In this document: piece after piece, positions 4,025 through 32,553 of the stretch
Layout of the letters: each line of letters opens with the position of its first letter
Position numbering within the stretch: the stretch's first letter is position 1
Origin: a virus
Direction: 5' to 3' (one strand)
DNA length: 64,000 nt
Virus record (IMG/VR): IMGVR_UViG_3300028384_001376
Location: 815-64,814 of that record
The notes under the pieces: model-generated
Told to the model about the DNA's origin: nothing
Seen by the model: the letters and a program-made list of their open reading frames with translations, nothing else
Database searches by the model: none
Position numbers and translations under genes: made by a program

Positions 4025-4041
4025 ACAAGGAGGACCAGCAC

Positions 4042-4911: not shown

Positions 4912-4933
4912 CCGCCAAAGGAGGAACCGAACC

Positions 4934-9084: not shown

Positions 9085-9115
9085 GCCCGCGACCATGAAA
9101 TAGGGGAGAATTTCA

Positions 9116-9421: not shown

Positions 9422-9430
9422 GAGGCCAAA

Positions 9431-9931: not shown

Positions 9932-9949
9932 AAAAAAGGAGTATTGGTC

Positions 9950-10192: not shown

Positions 10193-10211
10193 TCGCCGAC
10201 TCCGAAGGGGG

Positions 10212-10460: not shown

Positions 10461-10546
10461 TCGGTTAGAGCCTGATTAAAACAACAGTGCGGCACCAGGA
10501 AAGAAAGGGAGACACATAAACCCTTATTTTTAAGGAGGATTTAGCA

Positions 10547-11299
10547 ATGTCTCTCAAGCTTTCCACTGGACTTAGAAACAAAATGCTGGGCCTGCAAGCC
10601 ACCGTGACGGCCTCGTTTCAAGGCGCCACCGGCGCTTTTGTCGACGGCGGCGCCGGCGCGGACACCATCACCGACTCGGGCAACGGCTTCATCACCGCCG
10701 GGTTTGCCCCCGGCCAGGTGCTTTTTTGCAAAGGGGCCACCACGGCAGCCAACGACACGGCCGTCACCGGGGCTGTGATCCAAGGGGTGGCCGCTGGCAC
10801 CATTACTTTACTTACCGGCATCGTCAACACCGCCGAGGCCTTTGCTGCAGCCACTCTCATCTGCGCGGCCGAAGGCGGCTCGCTCAAGGACGTGCTGCGC
10901 GACGGCGTGCTGCGCATCTACAGCGGCGCCCAACCCACCAGCCCGGATGCGGCGGTCTCGGGCACCTTGCTGCTGGAGATCAGCGAAAGCGCCGGAGCCT
11001 TTGTGGCCGGCGCCTTCGACAACGGGTTGGAGTTCGGCGATGCGGCCAGCGGAGCCATCTCCAAGGCCAGCGGCGAGACCTGGCAGGATACCGGCATCGC
11101 CACCGGCACGGCCGGCTGGTTCCGCTTCGTGGGCAACCCCACCGACGACGGCTCGGCCAGCACCAGCTTGCCGCGCCTCGACGGATCGGTGGGCACCAGC
11201 GGGGCCGATCTGAACATGAGCAGCACCTCGGTCACCGTGGGGGCCACCTACACCATCGACAGCTTCACCTTGACGCTGCCGGAATATTACGGGGCATAA
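10547..11299 (+). CDS. Gly/Ala/Thr-rich virion protein (250 aa)
   Basis: AAGGAGG RBS. Composition typical of fibre or tube proteins. Confidence 0.45.
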   Translation: MSLKLSTGLRNKMLGLQATVTASFQGATGAFVDGGAGADTITDSGNGFITAGFAPGQVLFCKGATTAANDTAVTGAVIQGVAAGTITLLTGIVNTAEAFAAATLICAAEGGSLKDVLRDGVLRIYSGAQPTSPDAAVSGTLLLEISESAGAFVAGAFDNGLEFGDAASGAISKASGETWQDTGIATGTAGWFRFVGNPTDDGSASTSLPRLDGSVGTSGADLNMSSTSVTVGATYTIDSFTLTLPEYYGA

Positions 11300-11366
11300 G
11301 GGACAAAACCCATCTTTTTTTGGGGGTAGTTTTGTCCCTACAATCGGAGAATTGTAGGAGGCAATT

Positions 11367-12203
11367 ATGGCTGACCTTGTAATGCAGGAGGCGCATCACG
11401 TCCACGCGGCCGACAATGTGGTATTAATCCTGACGGTCACCGTCCAGGAGAGTTACCACGACATCGTGTGTGCGTGCGACATCAGCCCGAGCTGGCACGG
11501 GACAACGCTTTTTGACGACGGCAAGACGCACCCGCACCTTCCCGACCTGCGCATAGAGGCCCAGGCGGGAGAGCGCATCGACGCGGACGCCGAACTGCCC
11601 GGCGTCCAGCTGACCGACATGCGCGGCGGCGCACGGATGGACGACACACCCAACCTGCCCGATCTGGAGCTAAGCGCCGCAGCGCTGGTCGGCGCCACCG
11701 CATCGCTGGACCAGCGCCTGCCGGCCATGGAGGCCTCCGGGCGCACCGGCGCAAGGGCTGACGATGAGCTCATGCTGCCGGCCATGGAGCTGGGCATCTC
11801 CATCTGGGGCGATCTGCTGGCGCGTCTGGATAGGACCCTGCCGGGCTTGACGATCTCGGCCCAAGCATCGACGCCGGTGGTGGCCACCTTGGCCAAAGAT
11901 CTGCCCCCGCTATCTATCTCTGCGGCCGCATCGGCCATCACCACAGCGAGCCTAAACCGGGATCTGCCAGCCCTTAAAATCTCGGCCCAGGCCCTGATCG
12001 GCGCAACGGGCACCCTGGACGCCACGTTGCCCGACCTGGAGCTTGATTCGGACAGCGGCCTGTATGGCGATGCGCTGAGCCTGGATGCCACCCTGCCGGC
12101 CGTGGTGATGGCCAGCATTGCCACCGGCACCTTCGGCGGGCAGGCCGGAGAGCTGGTCGATAGCTCCCGGTTTACCGACTATGTGATGAGGTACGAGCGA
12201 TGA
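11367..12203 (+). CDS. repeat protein (278 aa), fibre-associated
   Basis: N-terminal HHVHAADNVV motif matches the fibre repeat unit. Then about seven ~20-aa LPxLx[IL]SAxA repeats. Confidence 0.45.
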   Translation: MADLVMQEAHHVHAADNVVLILTVTVQESYHDIVCACDISPSWHGTTLFDDGKTHPHLPDLRIEAQAGERIDADAELPGVQLTDMRGGARMDDTPNLPDLELSAAALVGATASLDQRLPAMEASGRTGARADDELMLPAMELGISIWGDLLARLDRTLPGLTISAQASTPVVATLAKDLPPLSISAAASAITTASLNRDLPALKISAQALIGATGTLDATLPDLELDSDSGLYGDALSLDATLPAVVMASIATGTFGGQAGELVDSSRFTDYVMRYER

Positions 12204-13660
12204 CGCACCTGGTCGGCCTCTTGACCCTAATCTGCATGTTTTTTGGAGTGGCCATGGATGAGCGCTCAGATCGACGCTATTTCAACTTAAACGGCATCAG
12301 CTTTGAGCTGTACGGCGACGTGGAGCAGGCCCGCAGGATTGTCCCGGCAGCCCAACGGCTGATGTTTAAGACCAAGTTGACCAACACACAAGGCCTGAGA
12401 CAGCTGCGCAACGAGGCGATGTTAGGCAATGGGATCGAGATCCGGGTTTCCAGCGTATTTGGAGACGATCGCGCCAAGATCTACTATCCGCCGGGGCCGC
12501 CGGTGGGTGTAAAACCCAAAGAGCGGATCATCACCCGCAAGAGGATGTACCCGGTGCTGGGCATCAGCCTGTCGCCCCATGAATACCTGGGCGAGCGTGT
12601 CGGCGACATGTATCAAGAGGGCCCCGTGCCGCTTTCGACCATCACCAGCTACTACATGGGCTTAGAGCAGGACCGCCTCTGGTATGAAAGCATCTTGTCG
12701 GACAAAAGCACGGAGTGGAAGAAATATAACCGCCTGGTCGATGTCAGCCTCTACGGCAACCAATATTCCACTTCCCCAAGCGAATATAGCTATACGCCCG
12801 TAGAAGATCACATCATCTGGGACCATGAATTTGCCTACCGCACCATTTGGGACCCCTTCGGCCACTCTTACAATGTTGACCCGGTGATTTTTACCTGCGG
12901 CGATTATGTGCCCGAGACCGAGCTTGAGATCGAGCTTTACCATGATGAGATCCGGGCGGCAGAGTTTGAACGGCGCTACGACTATAGCCTGGTCGTTGCC
13001 GTTGGAGCAGGGCGCAGCAGCACTTCGTCCAGCCATTACGTATATGACCGGGAATTTATGGAGGACTACAACATCCCCGACGACCTGGTCGCCGACGGCT
13101 GGCCGGAGGCGATGAGAAATCGCTGCTGTTATGCCGACGGCGATTACGAGGTGTGGGAGCGCAGGGGCTCTACCGCCACGCATAGCGGCATCTCAATCTA
13201 TTGGGAGGAGGGTTGCGAGACCAATGGGGAAGCGTCTTTCGATGAAAACGAGCACAGCGCATGCCTTTACTCCCGATATAATCTCAGCGGCGCCCGCAAC
13301 TACAGCTATCAGCTGATTTTGTACGTCGATGGCGAAGACTATCTGGTCTATTCGGGCACCCGCACAGACGATTCGGAGATGCCCGACGATATCTATGTGG
13401 TGAGCGTCAAGATCTTCGATTTTTACGGCCTGCCGGTGGTAGTCTTCGGTTATGTCCAGTTCTTTGTCTCCCAGCCCGATATCGCCAAGTACGGGATTTG
13501 GTTTAATGGCGAGCTTCGCCTGACCGAAGATTGGCCCATCGACGCATACATTACGCATCCCGTCAACGTGCCCGATGAATATTCGCACTTGTACGGTTAC
13601 GGAGAGCCGGTCGCTTTCGGCATCGAGGTCGAAGAGACGACTATCGTCGACAGCGTTTAA
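12200..13660 (+). CDS. Tyr/Trp/Asp-rich hypothetical virion protein (486 aa)
   Basis: ATGA overlap with the upstream gene. Aromatic-rich composition suggests a carbohydrate-binding or tail-spike-like role (inference). Confidence 0.45.
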   Translation: MTHLVGLLTLICMFFGVAMDERSDRRYFNLNGISFELYGDVEQARRIVPAAQRLMFKTKLTNTQGLRQLRNEAMLGNGIEIRVSSVFGDDRAKIYYPPGPPVGVKPKERIITRKRMYPVLGISLSPHEYLGERVGDMYQEGPVPLSTITSYYMGLEQDRLWYESILSDKSTEWKKYNRLVDVSLYGNQYSTSPSEYSYTPVEDHIIWDHEFAYRTIWDPFGHSYNVDPVIFTCGDYVPETELEIELYHDEIRAAEFERRYDYSLVVAVGAGRSSTSSSHYVYDREFMEDYNIPDDLVADGWPEAMRNRCCYADGDYEVWERRGSTATHSGISIYWEEGCETNGEASFDENEHSACLYSRYNLSGARNYSYQLILYVDGEDYLVYSGTRTDDSEMPDDIYVVSVKIFDFYGLPVVVFGYVQFFVSQPDIAKYGIWFNGELRLTEDWPIDAYITHPVNVPDEYSHLYGYGEPVAFGIEVEETTIVDSV

Positions 13661-13683
13661 AGCCTAATGCAAGGAGGTTACCT

Positions 13684-15648
13684 ATGTCCTTTACTTTTCC
13701 GGGTGATCCCGTAAACCTAACGGCACCGCAAGCGGTGTCCTCTTCGGGCCAAACCGTGCTCGAAAAGTTCCAGCAGGCGCAAAGCTATGCCGATTCGGCC
13801 TGGAACGAAACCTGGAACCTGCTCGACCAGCTCAGAAACCAAGAGTACTTGATCGAGTGGGAGCCCATCGAGGTGGACGATCTGGACCTGATGGGTCTGG
13901 ACGGGCTGGGCATGGAAGAGCCGGCCGAGCCTGCGGTGGACACCGACATCGCCGTGGCCACCACGACCATGAGCGCGGAGGCGCCCACCTTAGATGATGT
14001 GGATATCTCAGCCGAGACGCCGCCGGCCATGAACGTGGCCGATCCGCAGTTTGCCATCCCGGACGCGCCCACCGACGAGTTCCCGGTCTTTAGCGAAAAC
14101 GCCCCGGACCTGACGGCCATCGACTATCCGACCCGGCCGGACATCGATCTGCCGGCCGTACCGCAGCTGACCGATGTGTCGATCCCCAGCCCGCCCGAGT
14201 ACAACATCGCCGATTTCGAGGGCACGGCGCCCACTGCGGATCTGACGCCGCCGGATGTGAGCTTCAACTTTGACGAGGCGGCATATACCAGCGCAGTCGG
14301 AGACGAGCTGGCGACCAAGCTGTTGGGCGACCTGCAGACCGGCGGCAGCGGCCTGGACGAGGCCACCGAGCAGGCCATCTACGATCGGGCCATCTCGCGC
14401 CAGCAGACCGAAAACGAAAAGGTGGTCAACGATGCCTTGAACTTTTTTGCCAGCCGGGGCTTTACCCTGCCGCCCGGTGCGCTATCCGGGGCGATCATCG
14501 AGGCCAACACCCGCGTGGCCCAGATCCGCGAGGATCTGAACAACGACATTCTGATCCAGCAGTCCAACCTGGCGCAGAAAAACACCCACTTTACCATCTC
14601 CTCGTCCATCGAGCAGGAAAAGGGCTTGATGGCCCTGCACAACCAGGTCCAGCAACGCGCCTTCGAGGTGGCCCAATACACGGTGGAGGCCGCCGTGAAG
14701 ATCTACGGCATCCGGGTCGAAGCCTACAAGGCCCAGCTGGAGGCCTATAAGGCCCTGGCTCAAGTCTATGAAGTGCGCATCCGGGCCGAGATCGGCAAGG
14801 CCGAGATCTACAGGGCCCAGATCGAAGGGGTCAAGGCCGTGGTGGAGGTGGACCGGGCACGGGTGGAGGCCTATCGGGCCCAGGTGCAAGGCGTTGCCAC
14901 GCTGATCGAGCTCTACCGAGCCGAGATGGAAGGCACGCGGGTCCGCGCCGAGGTGGACCGCACCCGCGTGCAGTCTTTCGGCGCCCTGGTCGAGGCCTAC
15001 CGGGCACAGATCCAAGCGGTCACGGCCCGATACGAGGCCTACCGCTACCAGATCGAAGGCGAGAAGGTCAAAGCCGACATGTACCGCAGCCAGGTTGAGG
15101 CCTATGTCGCCCAGGTCCAGGCCTATAAGGCACGGGCCGATGTGGATGTCTCCCGCGCCCAGGTGGCCGTCGAACTCAACCGTGGCCGGGTGGAGGTCTA
15201 CCGGGCCGAGATCGAACGCTACCGGGCCGAAGTGCAGGCGGCCATCGCCCAGGCCGAGACCGAAGTCAAGGTCGAAGAGCTGGAGGTGGGGGTTTACGAG
15301 AGCCAGATCAAAAGATATCAGGCCGAGGTAGATGCCACCGTGCGGGCCTTTCTCGGTCGCGTCGAAGAGCTCAAGGCCCAGATCGACCTGGAGATCAAAG
15401 AGGCCGATGTCTCCACGCGCACGGCCATTGCCAGGTACGAGATGATGACCGAGTCGATCCGCAGCGCCGCCCGTGTGTCGGGCCAGCTGGCCGCATCGGC
15501 CATGGCCTCGGTATCGGCGTCGGCCGATATTTCGCACCGGGAGAGCCGCAGCGACTCGACGAGCCAATCGGCCAACGCCTCGGCCAGCAGCAGTCATAGC
15601 AGGGCGTACAGCCACAGCTGGCAAGATATTACCGTACATCATACTTAA
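13684..15648 (+). CDS. internal-virion / ejection protein candidate (654 aa) with ~30 tandem 11-residue helical repeats
   Basis: AAGGAGG RBS. Acidic/Pro N-terminus. A 33-nt periodic repeat encodes VEAYRAQIxGV-type 11-mers. Ser-rich C-terminal tail. Confidence 0.5.
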   Translation: MSFTFPGDPVNLTAPQAVSSSGQTVLEKFQQAQSYADSAWNETWNLLDQLRNQEYLIEWEPIEVDDLDLMGLDGLGMEEPAEPAVDTDIAVATTTMSAEAPTLDDVDISAETPPAMNVADPQFAIPDAPTDEFPVFSENAPDLTAIDYPTRPDIDLPAVPQLTDVSIPSPPEYNIADFEGTAPTADLTPPDVSFNFDEAAYTSAVGDELATKLLGDLQTGGSGLDEATEQAIYDRAISRQQTENEKVVNDALNFFASRGFTLPPGALSGAIIEANTRVAQIREDLNNDILIQQSNLAQKNTHFTISSSIEQEKGLMALHNQVQQRAFEVAQYTVEAAVKIYGIRVEAYKAQLEAYKALAQVYEVRIRAEIGKAEIYRAQIEGVKAVVEVDRARVEAYRAQVQGVATLIELYRAEMEGTRVRAEVDRTRVQSFGALVEAYRAQIQAVTARYEAYRYQIEGEKVKADMYRSQVEAYVAQVQAYKARADVDVSRAQVAVELNRGRVEVYRAEIERYRAEVQAAIAQAETEVKVEELEVGVYESQIKRYQAEVDATVRAFLGRVEELKAQIDLEIKEADVSTRTAIARYEMMTESIRSAARVSGQLAASAMASVSASADISHRESRSDSTSQSANASASSSHSRAYSHSWQDITVHHT

Positions 15649-15663
15649 TCTTAGGAGGCCGCC

Positions 15664-16737
15664 ATGCCATACGAATATGAATACAAGCCGCCTTTTCAAA
15701 GGGGCACCGATCCGTTGACCCCCATGCAGCGGCTGAACTACCACTACACCAACCGCATGGGGTCCTATGCGCCCCGGCCCAGTCCCACCCCGGACATAGG
15801 CCCAGGTGCCGTGCGGCGCGGTGCCGGCGATATCTGGACGCGGGTGCGCACCGAGCTGAGCAACATCAAACAGGGCTTTACCACCATGGGACGCGGTTTT
15901 GCCGAGGCGGGCAGAGATGTGGGCCGAACCACCGGCATTACCCAATTTGGCCAGGGTGCCATCGAGGCGGGCCGTGATGTGGGCCAGGCGCTGCAGCGCC
16001 TCAATCTGGGCCCGCAGGGACCGACCCGGTTTACCCTTAATGACCCCAATGCCCGGCCGGATCGTCCTGGACCCGGCACGGCGGCCGCCAGCCCGGCGCC
16101 CAACGCACCCACCGTGGAGACCGTCGAAAGAGGTGCGCCAAGAAGCACCTACGATCGCGGCGAAGGCGCCCCCACCGGTGCCACCCGAACCCAGGCGGCC
16201 GCCGCCACCGGCACGGCGCCGCCGCCGGTGGGGACAAATGTCCCCGCCCGCAACCGCTACCTGCAGATGTACTACGCCGGCGCCGATGCTCAGGATAAAT
16301 TTTTATCCGGCCTGCCCACCGGCCGGGCGCCCATCGAGGCCATCCGGGGCACCAAGCGCAGCTACTGGTCGCCGACCACCGAAAAAGAGTACGGCACGAA
16401 GCTGGAGGCGGCCTTTGGCGTCGAGCACAAGGAAGTGGCCGCCAAGGCGGGAGCGAAGTCGAAGCAGCAGTTCGAGCTGACCAAAGAGCGCATCAAGGCG
16501 CAGAAACCAGCCGAAATTCACAGGGTCACAGATCCTGAGACCCTCAAAGAAGAGCTCAAAATCTTTGATCCCAATACCAAGAAATTCATCGATAACGATG
16601 TCGAAAGGGACAAGGCGATTGCAGAGGCCCTGCGGGCCGGGACCGTTTCCGAAGATGAGTTCAAAGACTATTACAATAAGGCCAGCGCCGCACAGAAAAA
16701 GCGTTTGCGAGAGCTTATCGCTGGATTTCAGAAATAA
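15664..16737 (+). CDS. Pro/Ala/Gly-rich protein with charged helical C-terminus (357 aa); internal virion protein candidate
   Basis: AGGAGG RBS. Sits between the repeat protein and the giant gene. Confidence 0.45.
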   Translation: MPYEYEYKPPFQRGTDPLTPMQRLNYHYTNRMGSYAPRPSPTPDIGPGAVRRGAGDIWTRVRTELSNIKQGFTTMGRGFAEAGRDVGRTTGITQFGQGAIEAGRDVGQALQRLNLGPQGPTRFTLNDPNARPDRPGPGTAAASPAPNAPTVETVERGAPRSTYDRGEGAPTGATRTQAAAATGTAPPPVGTNVPARNRYLQMYYAGADAQDKFLSGLPTGRAPIEAIRGTKRSYWSPTTEKEYGTKLEAAFGVEHKEVAAKAGAKSKQQFELTKERIKAQKPAEIHRVTDPETLKEELKIFDPNTKKFIDNDVERDKAIAEALRAGTVSEDEFKDYYNKASAAQKKRLRELIAGFQK

Positions 16738-16749
16738 CAAGGAGGCAAA

Positions 16750-19700
16750 ATGGCTGTCTCATTGGCAGAAATAAGCCGGTGGATGGATGAGCAGGACGAG
16801 GCCCCGCGCTCAGCGCCGCAGGCCTTTCGTTTTGAACCACCGCCCCAGGCAGAGCCTTACCTGCCCCACATTAAAGCGGCCGAGCAAAAATATGGGCTGC
16901 CGGAAAACCTGCTGGCACGGGTGATTGCCCAAGAGAGTAACTTTAACCCGCAGGCGGTCTCGCCCAAAGGGGCCAGAGGTATCGCCCAGATCATGCCCGA
17001 CTATCATCCCGATGTGGACCCGGACGACCCGGTCCAGGCCATCGACTATGCAGCCGGCTATCTGCGCCAGAACGCCGACCGCTTCGGTGGCGACTGGGAC
17101 AAGGCCATCGCCGCCTATAATGCCGGCCCCGGCAATATTGAAAAAGGCATTATGCCGGCCGAAACCCAAGATTATCTCAAACGCATCAAGGGAGATGTCG
17201 CCCCGGTAGCCGGCGACGTGGATCTGCAATCGATTCTGGCCTGGATGGACGAAGAGGACCGGCGCCAGGCTGCGCCCGAGCCCGGCCTGATCAAGTCCGT
17301 CACAGGCGATGTCGCCGGCGGCTTGATCGATCTTGGCGAAATGTACGCCCGCGCCGGTCGCGCCCTGCCCGGCGGCCCGGAGGCCGGCGTCGAAGGCGGT
17401 GACTTTTTATCCAAGGCCGTCGTGTGGGCCGAAGACTTTCGCAAGGCCAACCCGAGCCTGGATGTCAATCCCAACCGCAAGGGGTTTTCGCGCTGGTTTC
17501 ACGAAGGCCTGCGTGCAGCCACTACTTCTATAGCCGCAGGCCTGCCCGGTGCGGCCGCCGGTGCCGCCATAGGTTCTCTTGTCAGCCCTGGCGTGGGCAC
17601 CTTCATCGGCGGTCTTCTCGGTTATGCCACCGGTGGCGCCACCCTTTTCGGTATGAGCGAATATGACTCGTTTCTGGAAGAGGCTCTCAATGCCGGCGTG
17701 CCGCTGGACCAGGCCGAGCCGGCCGCGATGCGCAGCGGCATGTACGAGTGGAGTTTCGAGTTTGGCGCCGATCTTTTGGAAGGTTTGACCCTGGGTGCTG
17801 GCAAACTGGCTTCCGCCGCTGGCAAGCAAGCCCTCAAGGAGACGGTTGCATCCCTTTTCAAGCAGGGCGTCAAGTCCGCTTTGAAGCGCGGGACGGGCAT
17901 CGTGGGCATCGAGACCGCCTCAGAGATGCTCACCGCCGGTTTACAGGCCGAAGAGTTGCAAGGCTTGGGCATCGGCAGCCAGCGCTTTACCGAGGCGGCC
18001 ATCCATGCCTTTGGCCCCTCGCTGGTGGCCTCGATGATCTTTGCCGGCCTGGGCGAGTATGGCCGGCATCGGGTGAGCAAGCGGGTGCAAAACACCTTGA
18101 AAGACCCCGAGGCCTCACCGGAGGCCCGCGAGGCTGCGGTCAAGATGGTCCACGACGCCATCGCCCCGGTCAATGAGCAAGTGGCGGCGCTGTGGCAGGA
18201 CACGGCCATGCAGGCGGTGGCAAACAACGAGGCCATCGACCTGGATGCGCCCATCGCCACCGACGCCCAGCTCGATGCCATGATCGAGGCCGACGTGGAC
18301 CTGGGCGAAAACGCGGCCAATGCCGTGGCCCAGGAGGAGGCTGCCGCTGCGGCCACCGAGCAGACCACCATTGAAGAAGACATCGACGCCCATGAGGCCT
18401 CCAAGGCCGCCGACCCGCTGGGCGACGACGCCATCGCCCAGGATATCATCGACAAGATCGCTGGCGGCCGTACCGCCCCGGTGGCCACCGTGCCACGCGG
18501 GCAAGGGGCCGAAGAGCTCAAGGCGGCCATTAGTGACTCAAAAACGGCCGAAAGTGAGCCACAAACCGGTTTGCCATTAACGGGTGAGGCACAAGCCTAT
18601 GAGCTGCCGCCTAAAACCGAAGGCGACTACAACCGCATCAAAGACTATGCCCAGTGGTTCAGAGCCAACCGCGATATGTCCAAGCGCTCCAATGCGGCCA
18701 GGGCCGATGAATTGGACTATTTTCTGGAGCGTCTGAGCCTGGGCAATCTGCCCATGCGACTGGCCCGAGTGATCAAAGGCAAAGGCAAGACCTGGGGCGA
18801 CGAGCGCATGGACCGCGTGGTCGATTTGCACGAACCGGTGCGCCGGGCCCTGGCTGATAAGTATGGCATGAACCTGATCAACAAGGCTTTTGAGGACCCC
18901 GAGTATAAAAAGAAGATCCGGGCCAAGCAAAAGGCCCAGGAGGAGCTACACCAACAGGCCCGCGAGCTGCTGACCGAGGACGAGTACCGCAAGGTCAGCA
19001 TGACCAACGTGCTGAGCCACTACTTCGACCCGGAGAAAAAAGAGCGGCCCACCACCTACGGCCTGGCACGCCGGCTTAACACCAGTGTGGAGGAGATCCG
19101 CGAGGCCATCGCCCTGGTCAACGAGTTCACCGACGGCGGACTCTATGTGGGCGAGCGCGGCGTGATCGACGGCACCATGTTCGATCGTGACGGTTATGAT
19201 ATGCACCGCGTCTTTCAGGGGGTGATCGACAAACGGGGTCAAACCGGGCCAAAACCGGAAGAACCGGGTGAAACCGTTTCAACCCAGGTTGAAACGCCGA
19301 CCGAAAAACCGCAAACCAAGCGCGAAAAGGCCGAAGCCGAATATAACGAGTTGGTGGCCTCTCTCACCGACGAGCAGCGCACCGCCCTGGGAGATCTGGT
19401 CAAAGAGACCGCGCCGAAAAACCCCTCGGTGTTGACCCACCGCATCCGCAAAAAGCTGGCCGAGATGGAAAAGGCGCCAGAAGCGCCGCAGATCCCCACC
19501 GATGTTATGCGAATGGTCAATGGCCGCTATGTCCAGATGACTGAGGCCGAGCGCCCTGCCCTGTACGAGCAGCTGGCTGACCTTAAAAAACAGGCCCAGG
19601 CCCACGGCGACAAGTTCCCACGGGGTACGATGCTGGCCGTCAATGCGCAGATGCGAACCCTGGAAAACGGGGCGGGCGAAATACCGACCTTCAAGACCAT

Positions 19701-22700
19701 TATCAACGAGGCCAAAGAGGAATTGGCCAAGCTGGAAAAGCCCCCGGCGCCGGCAGAAGAACCTGCCGATTCAACCTGGTGGGATAAAGAGCTGACACCC
19801 CAGGGCCGCCGCGAAGTTATGGCCAAGGCCGGCATTAAGCTGCCCGCCAGGGTCTTGTGGCGCAACATTTCGGATGAGAATCGGGCACGGCTATTGAGGG
19901 CCAAAGAAAGTGAACCTCCGGCCGGCAAAAAAACCGGCCTGACACCCGAGGGGCGAAGATCGCTCACCCGCCTGCGCGACCACCTCGAAAACAAGGGCGC
20001 CGGCTGGATACCGTCGGCAAAAAATACCTCCGAGCGCGTATCCTATCGCATTGTCCCGAGCGAAGCCAAGGACGGCTATTACAGCATCGAGCGTATTGAC
20101 GAGCGGAAGCTGCGCCAGATCCACACCGGCCCCTGGAATATGGAGCAGGCCAGGGCCGCCGCCATGAGGATGGCCAGGATGGAGCTGGAAACCGGGGAAA
20201 AACCCCCTCACCCTTCCAGTATCAAGAAGACCAAAGAAGAAAAAGCATCCGTGAAATTTGAGATCGGCGATATCGTGCGCCCCAAGCAGGGCAGCGGCAT
20301 CAGCGAAAAAAATGCCGGACGAATCGAACACATCAGCCGCGACAGCCAGGGCAATGAGTCGATCCAGACCGAAAACACCGGCAGCATGCACTTTGACGCC
20401 AAAGATTGGGAGCTGGTCACGCCCGAGGCTGAAAAGCCCTTGACACCAGATTCACAGATAGCAAATAATAAACCATTAGCCAGCGTTAGCGCCGACGACC
20501 TTCTGGCCGAGTGGGACCGGCAGGCGGCCGAGGCCGAAAAGCCGAAAAAGCCGAAAAAGCCGGAGACCTTAAAAGAGCGCCGCAAAAAGGTCAAGGCCCG
20601 GCAAAAGCAAAACGCCCAGGCGGCCAAACAGCCGGCCAAAGTAAAAAAGGCCGCCCGGCAAAAGGCCAAAGAGACCAAACAGCACCTGGCCAACGCCCTG
20701 GACGCCCTCAAGCAGATCAATAAGATTGTGGGCGAAAAGGGCCAGCTCGGCGAGGTCGACCCAACCAAATGGGAGCAGATCCGGCCGCTGCTCAAACTGG
20801 CCTGGGATGAAATGCTGGCCGCCGGCAAATCGGCCAAGGAGTTTGTGGCCCTGTCGCTGCAGACCCTGAGTCCGGCAGGCCGCCCCTATTTCGAGAAATT
20901 CGTAAGAGAGGAGATCGCCAATGAGCCTGTATCCGGTGAGAATGAAATACCTTTTGATGAGGGACTTTTACGGGACCGTGAAGAAGTGGCGGGAGAACCC
21001 CGACCAGCTGGACCAGGAGATCAGACAGACGCTGATCAATTCGGGCCAGTACGCGCAGGAGCTGAAGAGCAAGAACCTGGCATACGACCAGAGACAGGAG
21101 CTGATCAACAACTTCATCGCCCCGGCGGACGTACCGGACAAGCAAAGCCCGGACGAAAACCTGTTCGAGCAGATGATCAAGTGGGCGGAGGAAAAGGGAG
21201 CTCAGTTTCTCCAGGAGCGCAAGGCACAGAAGCGTTAGCGCCCGAGGATCGCAACCACGTCATCGCCCCCGACGATGTTATCGCCCCGCCTGGGATCGAG
21301 GGCAAAATCAACGCCAACATCAAGGCTATTCGCCTGCTCAAACAGCTGGAAGAACAAGATCGCAACCCCACCCCTGACGAAAAGAAAATCCTGGCCCAAT
21401 ATGTCGGTTGGGGCGCCTTTTCGCAAAAGGTGTTCAACGCCGACTATCACCGCTACTTGACCAAAAACAAAGACACGGCCCCGGAGGATTACTTTTGGCA
21501 GCCCGAAACGCTGAAAAAGTACAACCAGTGGGCCAACAAGTACGGCAAAAAGCTGCACCCCCAGCTCGGCGGCTTGATGACCCAGGAGGAGTGGAGCTCG
21601 GCGGCAGCGTCTACGATCAACGCTCATTTCACTTCAAAAGAGGTCGTTACCAACATGTGGGACCTGGCCAAACGTCTGGGGTTTAAGGGCGGCACCGTGC
21701 TCGAACCCGCCGCCGGCGTCGGCAACTTCTTTGGTCTCATGCCCCAGGATATCGCCCAAGAATCGGTTCTTTTCGGCGTGGAAAAAGACAGCCTCTCCGG
21801 CCGGATTCTCACCAAGCTGTATCCCCAAGCCGCCATAGAGGTGGGCCCGTTTGAAAAAAGCAGGGCGGTGCTGGACAACTCCATCGACCTGACCATTACC
21901 AACGTGCCCTTTGGCCGCGTTTCGATCTCAGACAAGCGCCATCCTGACTATGACGGCTGGCGGCTGCACAACTACTTTCTGGCCCGCAGCCTGGACGCCA
22001 CCAAGCCCGGCGGTCTGATGATGGCCATCACCTCGGCCTGGTCCATGGACGCCAAGAGCAACGGCAATGTGCGCGAATACCTGGCCAACAAAGCCGACCT
22101 GATCGGCGCCATACGCCTGCCCAACACGGCATTTAAGAGCAATGCCGGCACAGAGGTTGTCACCGATGTGCTGGTATTTCGCAAAAAGGACTCCAACGCC
22201 GCGAGCCTGGGCCACGATTTTCGCGTGGTCGACTATCTCGACAACAAAGAGTTCAGGGCGGCCGAAAAAAAGCTGATGCAAGCGCGGGAGCGGTTTGCCC
22301 GAGTGAAGAAAACCAAGCCCCAAAAAGACGCCAAGGCCCATGTCATGCGTGCCTATCGCCGGCGGTACAAGGCGGCCAAAGAGGCCGTCTCAGAGGCCAT
22401 GACAGACTATCGGGCCAGCTACGCGATCAACGAATACTTTATCAAAAACCCTGAGATGGTCCTGGGCAAGCACTCGATGAAAGGCTCGATGTACGCGGCC
22501 AACACTTACACCGTTGAGCCCTCGGGTGATCTGGCCGGGCAGATGGCCGAGGCCGTGACATCGTTTCCAGAAAATATTGCCGGCGAAGGCAGCGATCTGA
22601 GTCAACTGGAAAGGGTGGAGCTGGCCGGGATGAACGCCAAAGAGGGCACGCTGACCGTAAAAGACGGCGAGATCAAACTCATTGAAAACGGCCGTCTGGT

Positions 22701-25700
22701 CTCCCCACACTATGTGGGCAGCAAAGGTGAAAAGATGCCGCTCAAGCCGGCACAGCTCAAGCGCGTCAAGGCTTATCTCAAGCTGCGCGACCTGACGGCC
22801 GAGACCATTGCGGCCATGGGCGATGAGGCCACCACCGACGCCCAGGTCACAGACTACCAGCGCCGACTCAACCAGACCTATGATGCCTACGTCAAAAAAT
22901 TCAAGGCTTTCAACGGCAACGCTGCAAACAGTTTTCTGTCAAAGCTGGACAACGATTTTGCCTTGGTCGACGCCCTGGAGGTCCGCGTGGGCGATGGGCC
23001 CGACGCCGAATGGGTCAAGGCGCCGATCTTTACCGAGCGCACCGTATATCCTTTCAGAGAGCCCGACTCGGCCGACAGCATCGAGGACGCCATAAACCTT
23101 TCGATCATCTACCGTGGCGAGGTGTCGATGCCGTACCTGTCCGAGCTGTTGAGCATCCAGGATGCCGAAGCGATCAAGCGCGAGATCGTTGAAAAGGGCC
23201 TGGGGTTTGTCAACCCGGACACCGGCAAGGTCGAGCAGCGCGACCTGTATCTGTCCGGCAACGTGAAAAAAAAGCTGGCCAAGGCCAAGACGCTCGCTCA
23301 GGGCGATCCGTCTTATAATGCCAATGTCAAGGCGCTTGAGGCGGTTATTCCCGAAGATATTGATATCGAGTTTATCACCTTTCGCCTGGGCTCGACCTGG
23401 CTGCCGGCCGAAGCGGTCCAGGACTTTATAAAAGAGGTCATCGAGGTCGACGCCACCGTTGAGTACGTCGAAAAGGCCGGTGTGTCGCGCTGGCATATCG
23501 GCATAAACTCCGGCGCTTTCAACATAAAAAACCGTGAGACCTATGCCAGCGGCGATATTTCGGCCGTCGGTCTGATCGATCTGGCCCTTAACCTTAAATC
23601 GCCAAAGGTCATGGTGCCCACCGAGGACGGCAAGAGCACCTACGAGGATAAGGAAAAATCCAGAGAGGCTCGGATCAAGATGAACGAGGTCAGCGACGAG
23701 TTTGTCGCCTGGGCCAAGGGGCACGCCGACTGGACCTCCAGGTTGACCGCCAAGTATAACGAAGAGAAAAACGGCACCGTGCTGAGAAAGCACACCGCCC
23801 CGGATATCGATGTTTACCCCAACGCCAGCCCGGTTAATGTGGATGGCGCCCCGTTGCGGCTGCGTGAGCATCAGAAAATTGCCGTATCACGGGCCCTGCA
23901 AGAGTCTGTCCTGCTGGCCTACGGTGTGGGCACCGGCAAGACCTTTATCCTGATCACCACGGCCATGGAGATGAAACGCATCGGCACGGCCCGCAAGCCG
24001 CTGATCGTGGCCCACAACTCGACCATCGACCAGTACCGCAACAGCTTTAAGGTGCTCTATCCGGGCGCCAAGGTGCTGATCCCCAACGACAAACAGCGCA
24101 ACGCCAAGCAGCGCAAAAAGCTGCTGATCAGCATGGCCACCAATGACTGGGACGCCATCGTGCTGCCCCAGAGCTTTTTCGACGGCATCGCCAACGATCC
24201 GGCCAGAGAGCAGGCCTTTGTCGATGAGCAGATCGCACAAATCGAGGATGCCATTGCCGAGGCGGTAGCCGAGGAGGGCTCCGACTCCTGGACGGTCAAG
24301 GATCTGGAAACCCTCAAGGAGAACCGCATCCAGCGTCTGGATCGCCTGCTGGACCGTCGCCAAGACGAGGCGCTGACCTTTGAGCAGATGGGCATCGACG
24401 CCCTGTTGGTCGACGAGGTCCACTCCTATAAGCGCAGCGAGTTTTACACCAAGCTGAACAAGGTGCGCGGCATCGACAACGGCTCCAGCCAAAAGTCGAC
24501 CAGCCTGATCTTAAAGAGCCAGTTTGTCCGGCAAAAGACCGGCGGGAAAAACATTATCACGGCCACCGGCACCCCGATATCCAACACCCTGGCCGAGCTG
24601 TGGACCATGCTGCGCTATGTGCGGCCCGATCTGCTCGAAGACTATGGCGTGGCGATGTTCGACAACTTCGCCTCCACCTTCGGGGTGGTCGATGAGGACA
24701 CCGAACAGACGGCCAGCGGCTTCAAAGAGATCGAGCGCTTTAAGAGTTACACCAACGGCCCCGAGTTGCTGAGCATGTTCTACAGCGGCGCCGACGTGCG
24801 CCTGACCAAAGATGCCAACCTGCGCCTGCCGGACATCAAGGGCGACAAGCCCACGATGGTCGTCAACGACAAGTCGCCCGAGCTGACGCTCTATATCAAG
24901 GATATCATCGATCGATGGAAGGCATGGGAATTGTTGACCGGCCGAGAAAAGCGGCAACAGAAGCATGTGCCCATCGTGCTCTATGGCCTGGCCAAAAAGG
25001 CCGCCGTGGATATGCGCCTGGTCGACCCGCAGTATTTCCAAGACGATCCCAACAGCAAGGTCAACAACTGTGTGCGCGAGGCCCAGCGCATCTACAAAGA
25101 GTCTGCCGATATCCAGGGGACACAGGTCATATTTTGCGATCTGATTCGAGACAACGCCAAAGCTCCGCGCTTTAACCTGCACGAAGATCTTAGGGCCAAG
25201 CTGATCAAAACCGGCATCGGCGATGACGAAGTTGTCATATTTGAGTCCGGCCTATCCGATACCAAAGAAGAAGCCATCAAAGACCGGGTGCGCAGCGGGG
25301 CGATCCGGGTGATTATCGGCACCACCGAGCGCCTGGGCATTGGCGTTGACATCGCCGACAAGATCGTGGCCGGCCATCATCTGACCGTGCCGGATCGGCC
25401 CATGGATATGGAGCAGCGCAACGGCCGGTTTATCCGTCAAAGCAACAAAAACAGCCAGGTCGAAGTGCTACAATACGCCACCAAGGACACCCTGGACGCG
25501 GTTATGTTCCAGCGCCTGGCCACCAAGCAAAAGGGCGCCGACCAGGTTCTGACCGGCGATATCGACGGCCGCGACTTCGAGGACCCGTACAGCGCCGAGC
25601 AGGCCGATTTTAACGAGTTCGCCGCTGCGGCCTCGGGCAAGGCCGGCAAGCTGTTGTTTGAAAAGAGCAAGCTGACCAGCCAATTGCACAAACACCGGAT

Positions 25701-28700
25701 CGCCGAACAGGCCCATATTCGCAAGGTCTCCAACGCCCGACGGGAGATCAACCAGATCCCGGAACTGATCAGGCACGCAGAGATCGACTTGGCAAACGCC
25801 GAGCAGTTCAAGGCATACACGGACGAGGCCTTTCCTACCGGCAGGCTTGAAAAGCTGACCATCGACGGCAAGGAGATGCCCCGCAAGGAGGCCTATGAGA
25901 TCCTCACCAAGCGCATCGAGAGCCAGATCAGCGCCTGGGAGGACGAGTTTATCGGCAAGCCCATGGGCGATTTTCGCAAAAACGCTCCTGACAAAGATGG
26001 GTATGGAGACCCCAGGCTCAGCGCCGAGTATAAGCTGGCCGCCGGCGATATCGAGCTAAGGGTCGAGCTGATCGGCCGGGAAAACTATACTAAGGAGAGA
26101 AAGCCGTCGACTAAGCTGCAATGGTCTGAGGTCCGGGATAGGAGGGACGAAGATTGGCGCACCCAAAAGGTCGGCAATATCCCGATCAGCCTAAGATTCA
26201 AGGGCCGATTCCTGGGCCATATCTACAACGTAGGGCGCAAAAGCCTGGCCCAGCGGATCACCAGAAAACTCAACGAGCTAATTGCCGAAAGCAAAACGAG
26301 GCCGGATTATCATCGCAAGGCCATTAAGGCGCACAAAGCGGATATGGCCGAATATGAGAAGATCGCCCAGGAGTCGTTCAAATACCGCGAGGAAATGACC
26401 GAGATCCAACGCCGCATCGCCGAGATCAAAGCGGAGCTGACCCGGCTGAGCTCCGATGAGCTGCTCGGCGTCGAAGACGAGACGGCCGAGCAAGAGACGC
26501 CGGCGCCCAGCGGCATAGTCTACCATACGAAAAGCTCGGGACAGATCCGCACCCAGGCCATGAAGGACTTAAAAAACGGGATCATGCGCCTGCTGGTCGA
26601 CGACCTTAACCTCCACCGCCATGAAATCGAGGACTGGAAAGAACACATCAAAGAGGTCAAGGATACGCCCAAGGGCATTGTGATCGCCACCAGGAACTTT
26701 ATGGCCGCTTATGACTATGAGCTCAGCGCCGATGCGCGTCGGGCCCTGGGCCGGTTGATGCGCAATGCCACCGAGCAGATCAACCAGGGCCAACTGGTCG
26801 GCACCTTTGGAGAACCGCTGAGCGCCGGTATTCCAAAGGCCCTGGACGAAACCTTGCCCGATGACCTGCCCGAAGGGGTCACCCGGTTTGCCATGGGCAC
26901 CGCCGTCGAACGCCGGGCCCTAAATGTCCAACAGGTGCGCAACGTCCAGCGTGCCGCCGAGGTGGTCACCGCCGCCTTGTCCAAAGCCGGAGTCTCCAAG
27001 GCGTTGCGCAAGCAGATCACCCTCGACTTTAAGCCGATCATCGACCTGCGCGGCAAGGACATCGAGCAGACCGTCAAGGAGTGGGCCGCCCAGAAAAAGA
27101 GCGTTTCCACCATCTTGGGCGCCACCACTTTTAGCCGCTTCAACGCCCTGGTACAGCTCTCCCTGGAGCAGGACCTGACCAGACTGGAGCGCACCAGCTA
27201 CCACGAAGCGCTGCATATCCTGGCCCGCTGGGTGCTGCCCGAGGCCGAATATGGCCGGTTGATGAAGATGTATGACGGCAACGAAGAGGCCGCCGCCGAG
27301 GGCTTTGCCGACTATATGGCCGGGCGCACCAAACCGATCGGATGGCTGCGGCGCATCTTCATCAAGCTGCGCAACTTGCTCCGGCGGGTGGGAGGCGCCC
27401 TGCGCGGCGCCGGCTTTGTCAGCGCCGAGGATATCTTCGGTCGAATGGCCGGCCGGGCCTATACCGGTCAACCGATGCGACCGGCTACGGGCACCAGCAT
27501 CGCCCTGATGGCCGAACAGCGGGCCGCCAAATGGTACAGTCAGATGGAACGTCACCTGGAAGCCAAATTGCCGGGCAAAGGCACGCCGGCGCAGATCAAA
27601 AAGCTGCTCGACATCTGGGCCAAAAAGGGCCAGATCAACGCCGAGGAGCTGGAGTGGTCGGGGCTGCGCGAGTGGTTGGATGATTTCCAAAAGACAAAAG
27701 AGGCCGAATGGGTCGAGCAGCAAAAGCAATCCAAACAGATCAAAGACGAGCTTGGAAGGGGATATATGGACTTCTTGCTCGGAAGACATGAAACCGCCCT
27801 CGAAGGCATCAAAAGCTATGACCGGATCATAGACCGCTTAAAGGGCGAGGCTAAAAAGCAAAAGTTTGCCGTTACAAAGGCTGACGTGCTGGCCCAGCTG
27901 GCCGCCGGCCGGGTGCGGATCGAGGAGGTGGTAAAGGGTACATATCCGGTTTTAGACACCATCGCCAAAGAGATGGGTTATGGTGGATGGACGGCAGATT
28001 TAACAGATGAACAACAGCAAGAGATTATTGCTGAATCAGAAAGATATCCCCATCTTGGCGATGCCACCAAATTCGCCCAATGGCAAGAACCCGGCGGCGA
28101 GAACTACCGCGAGTTGCTGCTGACGCTGCCGGCAAAACAAGCACCTTTAAAAGATATTGATACGTCAAGCTGGACAGTCGAAACAATAGAAGAAAATGAG
28201 TACACTGGGCAGCGCGATATAGTCATTTTTGATGAAAACGGAAATCGATTAACTACGCGGTATGGGTTTAGAGGCACTGACGAAATGGCCATTGGCCAAA
28301 TGTCTGAAATAGAGAAAGACAGAGCACAACGGGCAAAGCAAAAAGAAGCAACCTATAAATCCACCCACTGGGACGAGCCCAACGTGTTGGCCCATGTCCG
28401 TTTCAACGAGCGCACCGGCACCGATGGCGAGCGCATCCTGTTCATCGAGGAGATCCAGAGCGACTGGCACCAGACCGGGCGCCAGAAGGGGTATAAAGGC
28501 GATATACCACACCCAAAAATCCGCAAGGTCGGCACCGTCCACACTTATACGCAAGAAGAATTAAAAAAAGAAGCAGACCATTGGCCCGTTGATTACATGC
28601 GAGATATTTCCGGGTTGAAGGCATCGGACATAACCTCTTTATCTGATCGCCTGACGAGGGAGGATCAAGAGCGGATACTCGAAGGGATAAAGGCTGGTGG

Positions 28701-31700
28701 GCGTCTCGGCAAAACCAATCCAATATGGGTGGTGAAAAATCCTGCCGGGGAGATTGTTTTTGCCACAATGTGGGGCAAAGGTGTGGCAGAGCAAACCGCA
28801 AACAAGTGGACCATGGCAGATCCCAAAACAGATAAGGAGCTGTTGGACAGAGAGGGGGATAGAATACGCCATAGCTCAAAAGAGGTTGTCGAACAACAGG
28901 CCCACTACCGCAGGGTCAACATGCAAGAGGGCATGGTCCCCGACGCCCCCTACAAAAAGACCTGGCCCCTGCTGGCCATGAAAAGGATGGTGCGCTACGC
29001 CGCCGAGGCCGGCTTCGACGCCATCGCCTGGACGCCGGGCGAGGTGCAGGCCGAGCGGTATGATTTGAGAAAGCACATCGATAATCTTTACTACGAGAAG
29101 CATCCAGACGGCATCACCATCGTTGCCAACAAAGATGATCGGCCCATCCTTGAGAAAGACAAGCTGTCCGAGCGTGCTTTAGAAGACCATGTTGGCAAGG
29201 ATTTGGCCAAAAAGATCATCGATGCAAAGGATGACCAAGGCATCTTCGACGGCCTGGATCTCAAAGTCGGCGGCCAGGGAATGCGCGGCTTTTACGACAA
29301 GATCCTGCCGGCCACGGTCAACAAGTTCTTCGGCAAAAAGGCCTGGGGCAAGGCCAAGGCCGAGACAATAGTGATCCCAAAAACCGCATTGTCTCCAGGG
29401 GAAAAAATTGACAGGTCAAGCCCATATGCCAGGGAAGTCTGGCACCTGCCCATCACCCGCGAGATGCGTCAAAAAGCCCTGGGCGAGGGCATGACCTTGT
29501 TCCAGGTGGCCGACACCACCGACGTTTTCGGCGAGGTGCTGCCCGAACCGGTGGAAGAGCAGATGAAAGCCGCCCGTGGCCGCGACAAGGCCAGCGTCAA
29601 GCAGCGTTTTTCCGACTGGCTCAAAACGGCCATCGCCACCTTCACGCCGGGCCAGATGTATCCGCAGATGCCCAACAAATACTTTGGCAAGGAAAACGAG
29701 ATCCTGCGCCGCTTCGTGGAGATCGCCAGCTACTCCAAGTCGCGGGCGGTGATGGACCTAAAAGAGATCCTCAACCCCAAACAGCTGGGGCCGGCCGGAT
29801 ACGACCTGTTTAACCTAAAGATCGTGCTCGACGACATGCTCTACGACGTGGAGACCGAGGGCCGGCCGCTCAACGACTGGCAGGAGCGCTACGGCGAGCT
29901 GCCCTTCGGCTTTGAAAGCGCCGACCAGCTGCGCGAGTCATTGGCTCGCATCGACCAGCGCGTGGCGGCCAACGCCGACGTGGCCGCAGCGCTGCAAAAA
30001 CGGCGCAAGATCATGCGCAAGCTGCGCCGGGACCTGGTGGCCGAGGGCCTTTTGGACCGCTCAGTATTGGATGACGAGCGCTACTTTCACCATGAAGTGC
30101 TCCAGTATGCCAACCTGGCCCACATGGCCGGCGTGGGCACCGGCTCGCGGGATGTGCGCACCAAGAAAAAGGGCTGGCAGATCTACCGCACCGGCTCGAT
30201 CAAAGACTACAACACCGAATACATGCAAAGCGAGTTCAAGGTGCTGGCCCAAGGCTACTCCCAGCTGGAGACCAAGCGTATCCTCGATGAGCTGGATGAG
30301 TCGAGCAACATCATCGGCGAGCTGCGCCACAAGGCCCGACAGCTTAACTATGTGGCCATCGTCGGCGGCCAGGAGAACTACAACCGGCTGCAACAGCTGC
30401 GCAACCAGGTGGCCTACCTGCGCGGCGACGGTCGAGACCTGGACAGCGATACCAAGGCCCAGATCAAAGCGCTCACCGACGAGATCTGGCAGCTGGACCC
30501 CACCATGCCCTTTCGGCAAAAGATCGCCATCGGCATGAGCAAGATGGGCGAGCCCCTGGAAGATGACCTGGAGTATATGGACTTTTCCGAGATCGCACGG
30601 CTGGCCGACGCGGGCGACATGGGCGCGGCCACGGTGCTAAAGGCCGTCAACGAGCGCAAGGCCTTTATCGCCGAGGCCCTGGGCGACGCCCACATGACCT
30701 GGCAAAAGCTCATGGAAGAGCGCGAGCCGCGCAAAGGGTCGGCCGGCTGGGCCGAGTGGATACCCAAACCCGGATCGGCCTGGTATCTGACCAACTCGCT
30801 GACCGACAAGCTGCTCGAACAGGTGGCCGCCGGGCTGCCCATCAGCCAAGAAGAGATCCGTCAGGTGTGGACCCGTGGCACCGACAAGCGCTGGGTAGTG
30901 CCCGCCGAGCTGGCCGAAGTGCTCAACGGCAAGGAGTTTATGAACCTCAAGCAGGACAACGTGGTAGCCGAAGCGGCTGAAAAGACCCTTAATTGGTGGA
31001 AGCGCTGGATACTGATCAACCCTTTTCGCTTTTTCAAGTACAACTTTAACAACCTGTCCGGCGACTTCGATATCGTCCTGGCCTATGACCCCAAGATCTT
31101 AAATTGGACCAAGCAGGCCGCCATAGACCTGTGGGCCCATCACTACGACAAGCCCATGGGGCCGGCCACCAAGGCCGAGCTGACCAAGGCCCTCAAGTAC
31201 GGCGTGATCGGCTCGGGCATGACGGTGCATGACATCCCCGACATTACCGACAGCGCCCAGTTCGATCAGCTGATCAGCGCCCTGCGGGCCGACAAACGCA
31301 AGGGCATCGACTACATCAAGCGCTTTTGGGGGGGCAGTAAAAACTTTACCACCTGGCGCGAAAACGTGCTGCGCCTGGCCTCCTATCGCTATTTTCAAGA
31401 AAAAGTTAGGGCCGGCAAACGGGTCTACGGTGCCAGCGACGTGGCCAAGGTCGATGCGGTCACCGATCCAGACAAAAAGGCCGCCTTGCTGGCCCGCGAG
31501 CTGATCGGCGACTACGGCGGGCTGAGCAAGGGCGGTCAGTGGCTGCGCCGCAATGCGATCCCCTTTTACAGCTGGAATGAGATCAACGCCCCGCGCTACT
31601 GGCGCATGTTCAAAAACCTGCCCGTCGAGGGCGAGCCCAGGGGCCGGCGCCTGCGCATGGGCGGCGCCCTGGCCAAAAAGGCCGGCGTAACCACGGCCAA

Positions 31701-32553: not shown

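Follow-up and report, generated by a model that had tools for sequence, protein, structure and literature searches.

We analysed a 64,000-nucleotide stretch of viral DNA (hereafter the window; positions 815 to 64,814 of IMG/VR record IMGVR_UViG_3300028384_001376), in which a single gene (16750-32553, plus strand) encodes a protein of 5267 residues. This giant is likely to be a phage-type polyvalent virion protein, a class defined by Iyer, Burroughs, Anand, de Souza and Aravind in 2017 (PMC5512222), that is made late, packaged in the capsid in few copies and ejected ahead of or together with the DNA. The architecture of its first ~3600 residues is already known. What is new is the C-terminal part, composed of two widespread modules, named here B and A, that no database describes.

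The gene and its N-terminal two thirds

The gene is genuine and well preserved. It starts with an ATG that is preceded, at a distance of 4 nt, by the Shine-Dalgarno sequence AAGGAGG (the preceding open reading frame [ORF] ends at 16737), its translation contains one stop, at the end only, and the start codon of the gene that follows (32550) overlaps this stop. At the base composition of the window (stop probability 0.034 per codon), 5267 stop-free codons would occur by chance with a probability of about 1e-79; the second-longest ORF encodes 763 residues. The single uninterrupted frame reported in the initial annotation is thereby confirmed. The protein has no internal repeats, and the G+C content at third codon positions (GC3) is even along the gene (0.70-0.85) except for two dips to 0.52-0.56, at 20500-21250 (residues 1251-1500) and 28000-28750 (residues 3751-4000). 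The first dip falls on the two linkers, basic and Pro/Gly-rich, and the second on an insert in module B that is lineage-specific; they may reflect relaxed constraint or recent insertion.

The window is nearly all of one metagenome contig of 64,814 bp from the Joint Genome Institute (JGI/IMG). As the sequence is a single contig, the full-length gene has no independent copy: the identical protein record (P0040) is from this same contig only, megablast against phages and plasmids gave no DNA match to the gene, and collinearity with any other protein reaches at most 2842 of the 5267 residues. The single contig, the limited collinearity and the two GC3 dips would fit an assembly or frameshift artefact, that is, a metagenomic chimera fusing genes or pieces of different phages. 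We nevertheless consider such an origin very improbable, since independent sequences show each type of junction. P0008 and P0011 run from the hydrophobic module to the helicase, P0061 has the helicase followed by module B and then module A, P0001 has the HExxH region followed by the same two modules, L045 has the HExxH region immediately before module A, P0004 combines SLT with module A, and the annotated genes of isolates, encoding 4.4-4.9 thousand residues, have the same N-terminal order. The low cysteine content, even along the whole protein, and the gene signals and chance probability given above also argue against a chimera.

The initial annotation listed an SLT domain, a Gly/Ala zipper, a basic spacer, an N6-adenine methyltransferase (MTase), an SNF2-type helicase and an HExxH motif, and each of these was recovered by Pfam, PHROGs, motif or hydropathy analysis (Table 1). 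The SLT domain carries the catalytic pair E62-S63 and an AYNAG motif (residues 122-126), and its region matches PHROGs for internal virion and lytic tail proteins, including phrog_342 ('internal virion protein with endolysin domain', residues 36-149), as well as MltC/Slt70 in the PDB. The hydrophobic module that follows is kept in P0037 (51% identity), P0038 (44%), P0008/P0011, the giant of phage LASTA (residues 344-640, 26%) and six IMG/VR loci.

Residues 540-1155 have no relatives in a word-indexed search of 5.8 billion clusters or in tblastn searches of the IMG/VR loci, and gave short-motif matches only (residues 846-903, and residues 969-1055 to the giant of Atu_ph08). The whole of residues 540-1400 had been taken as orphan; this was dropped and the orphan part shrinks to residues 540-1155, because residues 1156-1400 are conserved in the IMG/VR loci, with tblastn matches at ~10 of them. 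Residues 1157-1277 also match phrog_4317, and the alignments of P0029, P0093 and P0108 begin at about residues 1226-1239. The basic low-complexity spacer in this part reads KPKKPKKP...KVKKAARQK, and the helical domain at residues 1313-1400 precedes the MTase in relatives too.

The core of the protein is a module composed of LPD36, an EcoKI/TaqI-like adenine MTase and a SWI2/SNF2 ATPase. The LPD36-like domain has GWGA at residue 1553 (the GxGU motif), the MTase has EPAAGVGNF (motif I) at residue 1652 and NVPF (motif IV) at residue 1718, and the MTase region is 66% identical to P0008/P0011. NVPF (residues 1718-1721, nt 21901-21912) is also found in the closest core relatives, P0008, P0011, P0029 and P0006, while the Bcep22, LASTA, PEp14, Atu_ph08 and VvAW1 giants have NPPF, making NVPF a subfamily marker. 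Helicase motifs I, II, III and VI are intact (GVGTGKT at 2392, DEVH at 2555, TGTP at 2606 and QRNGRFIRQ at 2889). The 4647-column profile phrog_10089 ('DarB-like antirestriction') matches the central 2000 residues at E 9e-279 and phrog_11801 matches as well; together with the motifs, this bears out the proposal of a polyvalent protein in which a DarB-like MTase and helicase are fused to SLT. NCBIfam matches to PglX, DrmD and MAD2 were far below cut-off, and a reading of the gene as a defence system was dropped on context.

Past the helicase, the alignment with P0008/P0011 ends at about residue 3245. The HExxH domain beyond this point has a candidate third metal ligand in the E of EGFADY (residue 3517). 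In an alignment of 11 giants (the one described here and P0002, P0018, Bcep22, LASTA, PEp14, VvAW1, P0011, P0005, P0041 and P0042), every member has an HExxH with a downstream EExxA(D) pattern at the same place past the helicase. The domain has both the HExxH helix and the downstream Glu-bearing helix of the polyvalent-protein metallopeptidase MPTase.

Table 1. Features of the giant protein and neighbouring genes in the window
Feature	Residues of the giant	Nucleotides	Strand	Evidence
Major head protein		222-1196		
Head-closure protein		3110-4024		
Tail protein with galactose-binding-like domain		6804-8567		
Further virion proteins		9431-9931, 10547-11299		
654-residue Cys-free coiled-coil virion protein; candidate co-ejected or ejectosome partner		13684..15648	+	phrog_10969 E 1e-107
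357-residue Cys-free ORF right before the giant; candidate ejection partner		15664..16737	+	No family match
SLT lytic transglycosylase	41-139	16870..17166	+	Pfam PF01464 E 1e-24
Hydrophobic Gly/Ala-zipper module, candidate membrane-insertion part	179-515	17284..18294	+	Hydropathy peaks at residues 260-290 and 416-434
Orphan acidic/helical region (~615 residues)	540-1155	18367..20214	+	
Small conserved domain (1156-1230), basic spacer (1263-1312), helical pre-MTase domain (1313-1400)	1156-1400	20215..20949	+	
Pro/Gly-rich linker, low GC3	1401-1500	20950..21249	+	GC3 0.56 over residues 1251-1500
LPD36-like helical domain, N6-adenine DNA methyltransferase and C-terminal extension	1501-2350	21250..23799	+	
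SWI2/SNF2-type superfamily 2 ATPase/translocase	2351-2950	23800..25599	+	Pfam ResIII, SNF2-rel_dom, Helicase_C; PDB ISWI/INO80
Post-helicase helical region	2951-3370	25600..26859	+	Inside the phrog_10089 match, which reaches residue ~3477
HExxH zincin-like metallopeptidase candidate	3389-3569	26914..27456	+	HEALH at 3485-3489 (nt 27202-27216)
Module B, conserved, enzyme-like, possible GNAT-like core	3590-4255	27517..29514	+	
Module A, all-helical C-terminal module (~1000 residues; core 4665-5267)	4260-5267	29527..32550	+	
M15 peptidase endolysin, first gene of the lysis cassette		32550..32984	+	Pfam Peptidase_M15_3 E 8.5e-16; phrog_894 endolysin
Large terminase		56012-57655		
Portal		58619-60910		

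The C-terminal modules A and B

An exhaustive HMMER search of 1.84 billion representatives detected module A in 2166 clusters (50% identity) at E<=1e-3, and in 1554 at E<=1e-30. Among the 150 matches listed of these 2166 clusters, the proteins range from 580 to 6639 residues and the match ends at or near the protein C-terminus in 150 out of 150. Module A is also found as prophages in 34 GTDB species genomes (Desulfobacterota, Nitrospirota, Gemmatimonadota, the Sphingomonadales Sphingopyxis and Novosphingobium, and others) and in at least 115 contigs of IMG/VR, many measuring 60-65 kb. It likewise terminates the ORFs of these two sets, which span 1.2 to more than 4.4 thousand residues, and in the prophage loci inspected the genes that come after such ORFs often resemble those of holins and lysozymes. 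In the 50,697 deposited phage genomes searched, no module A was found. No Pfam family was hit in 24 out of 24 members, NCBIfam and PHROGs gave no match, and neither did sequence searches of the PDB, including those with the profiles A1 and A2 and with the C-terminal half. The suggestion that the C-terminus holds regions of no recognisable family has thus held up for Pfam, NCBIfam and the PDB.

The cargo that precedes module A varies. The MTase-helicase is present in ~20-25% and module B in ~10-20% of the proteins, and RadC, ART, ddrB-ParB, zeta toxin and SLT domains also occur. The invariant terminal position and the shuffled cargo suggest that module A may be an adaptor recruiting variable cargo into the virion or the ejection apparatus. 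The F116-type giant has cargo in common with module-A giants and a PLxRFG C-terminus, and in P0016 module B occurs together with a C-terminus of PLxRFG type, so that at least two alternative constant C-termini are combined with shuffled cargo. Cargo domains of the F116-type giant of phage Epa33 are found in the module-A giants P0131, P0144 and P0094, which also indicates that cargo is shuffled between the two types of C-terminus. Three candidate relatives of module A were tried and ruled out by hhalign: the PLxRFG domain, of which it might have been a divergent form (probability 0.1%, no shared motifs), the C-terminal encapsidation region of the N4 virion RNA polymerase (vRNAP, gp50; 0.2%) and the C-terminus of the Epa33 giant (0.3%).

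Module B is common to ~25 other giants, including that of Dolichospermum phage Dfl-JY45, and holds the low-GC3 insert at about residues 3920-4060. Its near-invariant polar residues (SxHxDEPNxLAHxR, LFxEEIQSDWHQ, AWTxGEQQAERY and GGEGMxGFYDK) suggest that it is an enzyme. Only two deposited phage records, Dfl-JY45 and Caudoviricetes sp. MW202675, contain module B; the Dfl-JY45 giant (P0007, 2387 residues) has two tandem copies of it and an ART-PolyVal domain.

A GNAT-like fold for module B is a lead to which we give somewhat less than an even chance. Were it correct, the giant could be mainly a carrier of host-takeover toxins, in which module B, as a GNAT-like acyltransferase, would be decisive and the DarB-like unit secondary, and would modify host defence proteins or tRNA in the manner of AcrVA5 or TacT/AtaT. 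We regard this as doubtful: the predicted model of module B is poor overall (predicted local distance difference test 59.8, predicted template modelling score 0.37) and gave nothing significant in Foldseek, no Pfam family, GNAT included, was hit in 15 out of 15 members, and neither sequence membership of the GNAT family nor a verified acetyl-CoA motif A was found. A relationship to the small GNATs of Bcep22, LASTA and Itty13 was also tried and has no sequence support (hhalign probability 0.1%). These small acetyltransferases (143-151 residues; L001 3403-3834, L002 4212-4667, L006 3215-3652) are encoded in the virion-gene block of the three phages, a few genes upstream of the giant. Unlike them, the window has no separate small GNAT and no homologue of theirs; its giant does carry the possibly GNAT-like module B.

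Cysteine exclusion, genomic slot and ejection

The giant contains only two cysteines in 5267 residues, both in the helicase, whereas the 29 other ORFs of the window contain 112 in 9372 residues (1.2%); against this background the Poisson probability of two or fewer is 7e-25. The two ORFs directly upstream also lack cysteine (0/654 and 0/357). The same holds for the giants of Bcep22 (gp75, 0/4602), LASTA (gp1, 0/4433), PEp14 (gp27, 0/4914), VvAW1 (0/3640) and Epa33 (structural protein 5, 0/3799), and nearly so for that of Atu_ph08 (1/4877), for 39 metagenomic giants (0.03%) and for 80 IMG/VR module-A ORFs (0.054% of 254,638 residues). Proteins that are proven to be ejected have none either, namely N4 gp50 (0/3500) and gp51 (0/644) and T7 gp15 (0/747) and gp16 (0/1318), while the N4 primase, which is not ejected, has 8 in 715. 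The near absence of cysteine, as in the proven ejected proteins of N4 and T7, supports injection of the giant and supports the view that it and its two upstream neighbours travel through the tail and the periplasm. The word 'cysteine' does not appear in the main text of Iyer 2017 (PMC5512222) or in the ejection-protein papers searched. In general, cysteine exclusion might serve to predict which phage proteins are ejected.

The genomic slot is the second line of evidence. The giant gene lies among late and virion genes (terminase, portal, head and tail upstream; lysis downstream), between tail and virion proteins (6804-16737) and a lysis cassette in which the M15 endolysin gene is followed by ORFs for membrane proteins, in agreement with the position after virion genes and before lysis that had been noted for it. 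In Bcep22 and PEp14 the order is likewise tail fibres or virion-associated proteins, then the giant, then lysis genes; the LASTA record has the same genes upstream of the giant and stops before any lysis genes. The virion-giant-lysis order is also found in Epa33 and in prophages, and the argument from the slot holds because of the synteny with Bcep22, PEp14 and F116-type phages. By this synteny, the phage of the window would be of podovirus-type morphotype.

'Structural protein 4' of F116-type podoviruses shares 32% identity (E 1e-60) with the 654-residue protein, and a Ca. Magnetominusculus prophage (L018) also encodes a homologue upstream of its giant. The 654-residue protein has a Ser-rich tail and long repeats of a heptad-like pattern (VEAYRAQ..., EAYKAL...), and is likely a component of the ejectosome or tunnel. 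The 357-residue ORF occupies the position of Epa33 gp61 (720 residues, no cysteine).

SLT domains and Gly zippers are also traits of tape measure proteins, and the giant might be an oversized tape measure of a long-tailed phage. The best PDB match of the SLT domain is indeed a tape measure protein (9b45), no other ORF in the window is long enough for this role save the 654-residue coiled-coil one, and the nearest cultured relative of the portal is not a Bcep22-type phage. But no tail tube, sheath or chaperone family was found among the ORFs scanned, the gene follows that of a receptor-binding-like protein and directly precedes lysis, as in Bcep22, JC1 and F116-type phages, the phages that carry homologous giants have podovirus morphology (C1 morphotype in JC1; PMC9144972), and MTase, helicase and peptidase cargo is foreign to tape measures. 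On gene order, cargo and relatives we dropped this explanation as extremely improbable.

It is also conceivable, though we think it unlikely, that the giant is packaged in the virion and not delivered to the cytoplasm, serving as a scaffold or pressure element inside the capsid or as an entry device for the periplasm only, with the MTase-helicase acting on DNA in the head or late in infection before packaging. Module A is large, helical and structural-looking, and protection of the P1 DarB type could in principle be set up before ejection. However, the SNF2 translocase and the MTase need cytoplasmic cofactors (ATP and S-adenosylmethionine, respectively), the SLT and hydrophobic modules are sensible only outside the capsid, cysteine exclusion is common to proteins known to exit the capsid, and delivery has been inferred for the whole class (Iyer 2017; PMC5512222).

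If the giant is indeed packaged and ejected, it would leave the particle as a string of loosely linked domains, comparable to the N4 vRNAP (PMC13434306). The N-terminal SLT domain, recognized by its family and catalytic motifs, would cut peptidoglycan during entry, and the Gly-zipper module, with the two upstream cysteine-free proteins, may help to build a conduit across the envelope. In the cytoplasm, the LPD36-N6A-MTase-SNF2 unit would, like P1 DarB, track along the incoming DNA and protect it from restriction by methylation in cis. The HExxH domain, to judge from its motif, would probably cut the polyprotein or host targets. Module B would be an additional enzyme-like cargo, possibly an acyltransferase of GNAT fold, although the lead is weak, and module A would recruit the cargo to the virion or ejection apparatus as the counterpart of PLxRFG in Bcep22- and F116-type giants.

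Several points weigh against this interpretation. Mass spectrometry has placed only JC1 gp69 in virions. For module A, neither fold nor sequence comparison gave a relative of known role, so that its packaging role is argued from position, and cysteine exclusion is correlative evidence. The MTase motif IV is NVPF where the canonical form is NPPF, and the HExxH domain showed neither a structurally confirmed zincin fold nor membership of Pfam MPTase-PolyVal. The phage is far from cultured ones (its portal shares 26% identity with the best match among the 50,697 phage records), and the morphotype therefore follows from synteny only.

Giant polyvalent proteins make up about one-quarter of these phage genomes, and their experimental dissection has been limited to virion proteomics. 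The protein described here is an example of an architecture in which variable cargo lies between an N-terminal entry device (SLT and hydrophobic module) and a constant C-terminal module. We tentatively propose, as a possibility rather than an expectation, that module A is a very large C-terminal family for virion loading or ejection, serving as an adaptor for shuffled cargo in environmental phages of ~60-65 kb and as an alternative to PLxRFG, that cysteine exclusion is a general signature of ejection, and that module B is a new GNAT-like effector family. If module A is such a packaging or ejection adaptor, it would offer a means of loading phage particles with foreign proteins and a marker for injected anti-defence effectors in metagenomes, and the cysteine signature could be a cheap predictor of ejected proteins. 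The large module A family, module B and the cysteine signature are the aspects that merit attention.

Elsewhere in the window, the only sizeable minus-strand genes (34189-35391 and 35960-36418; G+C content 0.49) lie just past the lysis cassette. The former encodes a 400-residue coiled-coil protein with no match to integrases or any other family, and the latter a 152-residue protein that is helix-turn-helix repressor-like by sequence; in PEp14 the corresponding place is taken by an integrase. A single tRNA gene, tRNA-Gln (anticodon TTG), is located at 49509-49582 in the early/middle gene region.

Comparison with known systems

The closest characterized relatives of the giant are the Bcep22-type proteins. 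Its core is 32-34% identical over ~1500 residues to the giants of Bcep22, DC1, JC1, PEp14, LASTA, VvAW1 and Atu_ph08 (32.5% between residues 1523-2963 and residues 1588-2959 of Bcep22 gp75), with further matches in PBC5 and other phages. An N-terminal SLT is present in LASTA and PEp14 too, and a hydrophobic module in LASTA; an HExxH...E lies 500-600 residues past the helicase in five of the six giants of this group compared (none was found in Atu_ph08), and near-total lack of cysteine is common to all. Neither the size nor the domain mix is as unusual as first supposed: Bcep22 gp75 (4602 residues) shares the MTase-helicase core and the HExxH motif, JC1 gp69 (4515) is of similar length, giants with this kind of mix (SLT, hydrophobic module, MTase-helicase, HExxH) are annotated in PEp14 (gp27, 4914), LASTA (gp1, 4433) and Atu_ph08 (4877), module-A proteins from metagenomes reach 6639 residues, and the class itself has been described (PMC5512222). 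JC1 gp69, whose gene occupies 22% of the genome, was represented by 51 unique peptides in virions purified on caesium chloride (PMC9144972).

The giant differs from these proteins in being 350-830 residues longer (~1630 in the case of VvAW1, at 3640 residues), in the NVPF motif, in the unique residues 540-1155 and, above all, in having modules B and A in place of the PLxRFG module. The latter forms the C-terminal ~900 residues of those giants (PLARFG in LASTA and PEp14, PLGRFG in Atu_ph08, PLSRFG in Epa33); the giant of the window has neither the motif nor an NCBIfam match to it at E<=0.1. BLAST and tblastn found no similarity between its last ~1700 residues and the annotated Bcep22-type giants, hhalign gave a probability of 0.1% for module A against the C-terminal module of LASTA, PEp14 and Atu_ph08, and no module A motif occurs in those proteins. 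For the N-terminal 3600 residues there is thus an annotated precedent with this architecture, but for the C-terminal 1700 there is none.

The F116-type giant of Epa33, 'structural protein 5' (3799 residues; L044 2548-13947), occupies the same slot, is followed by a holin and a muramidase, and is encoded two genes after a homologue of the 654-residue protein, as is the giant of the window. It is cysteine-free and has two HExxH motifs, but it ends in a PLSRFG module, has no MTase-helicase and shows no BLAST similarity to the giant.

P1 DarB, after which the family phrog_10089 is named, has the same pairing of an N6A-MTase with a superfamily 2 helicase. It is a protein of ~2255 residues with no SLT domain, no hydrophobic module and neither module A nor module B. 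DarB is packaged in the P1 head and shields the DNA that enters the cell, in cis, from type I restriction (PMC5512222); DarA, Hdf and other P1 proteins are needed for it to be packaged (PMC9144972). More generally, the giant carries at least two unrelated enzymatic domains in one polypeptide (SLT, N6A-MTase, SNF2 ATPase and HExxH) and shares with the polyvalent class the LPD36-MTase-SWI2/SNF2 module, which is the third most prevalent polyvalent element, a zincin-like HExxH domain, zincin-like metallopeptidases being the main hub of these proteins, and a lysozyme-type domain, for which a role in breaching the wall on entry has been proposed (PMC5512222). No LPD, PBECR or other polyvalent-protein family in Pfam is matched by module A or module B.

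Among proteins with proven ejection, T7 gp16 is a counterpart of the N-terminus, having an SLT domain at the N-terminus of a cysteine-free internal protein; the giant shares the SLT domain and the near absence of cysteine, and beyond the SLT domain no similarity to T7 gp16 or N4 gp50 was found. The giant has no RNA polymerase domain such as that of N4 gp50, but it resembles gp50 and T7 gp16 in being a large protein that is nearly free of cysteine, and both of these are ejected through a short tail, the 3500-residue N4 vRNAP as a beads-on-a-string protein that passes through the tail channel (PMC13434306).

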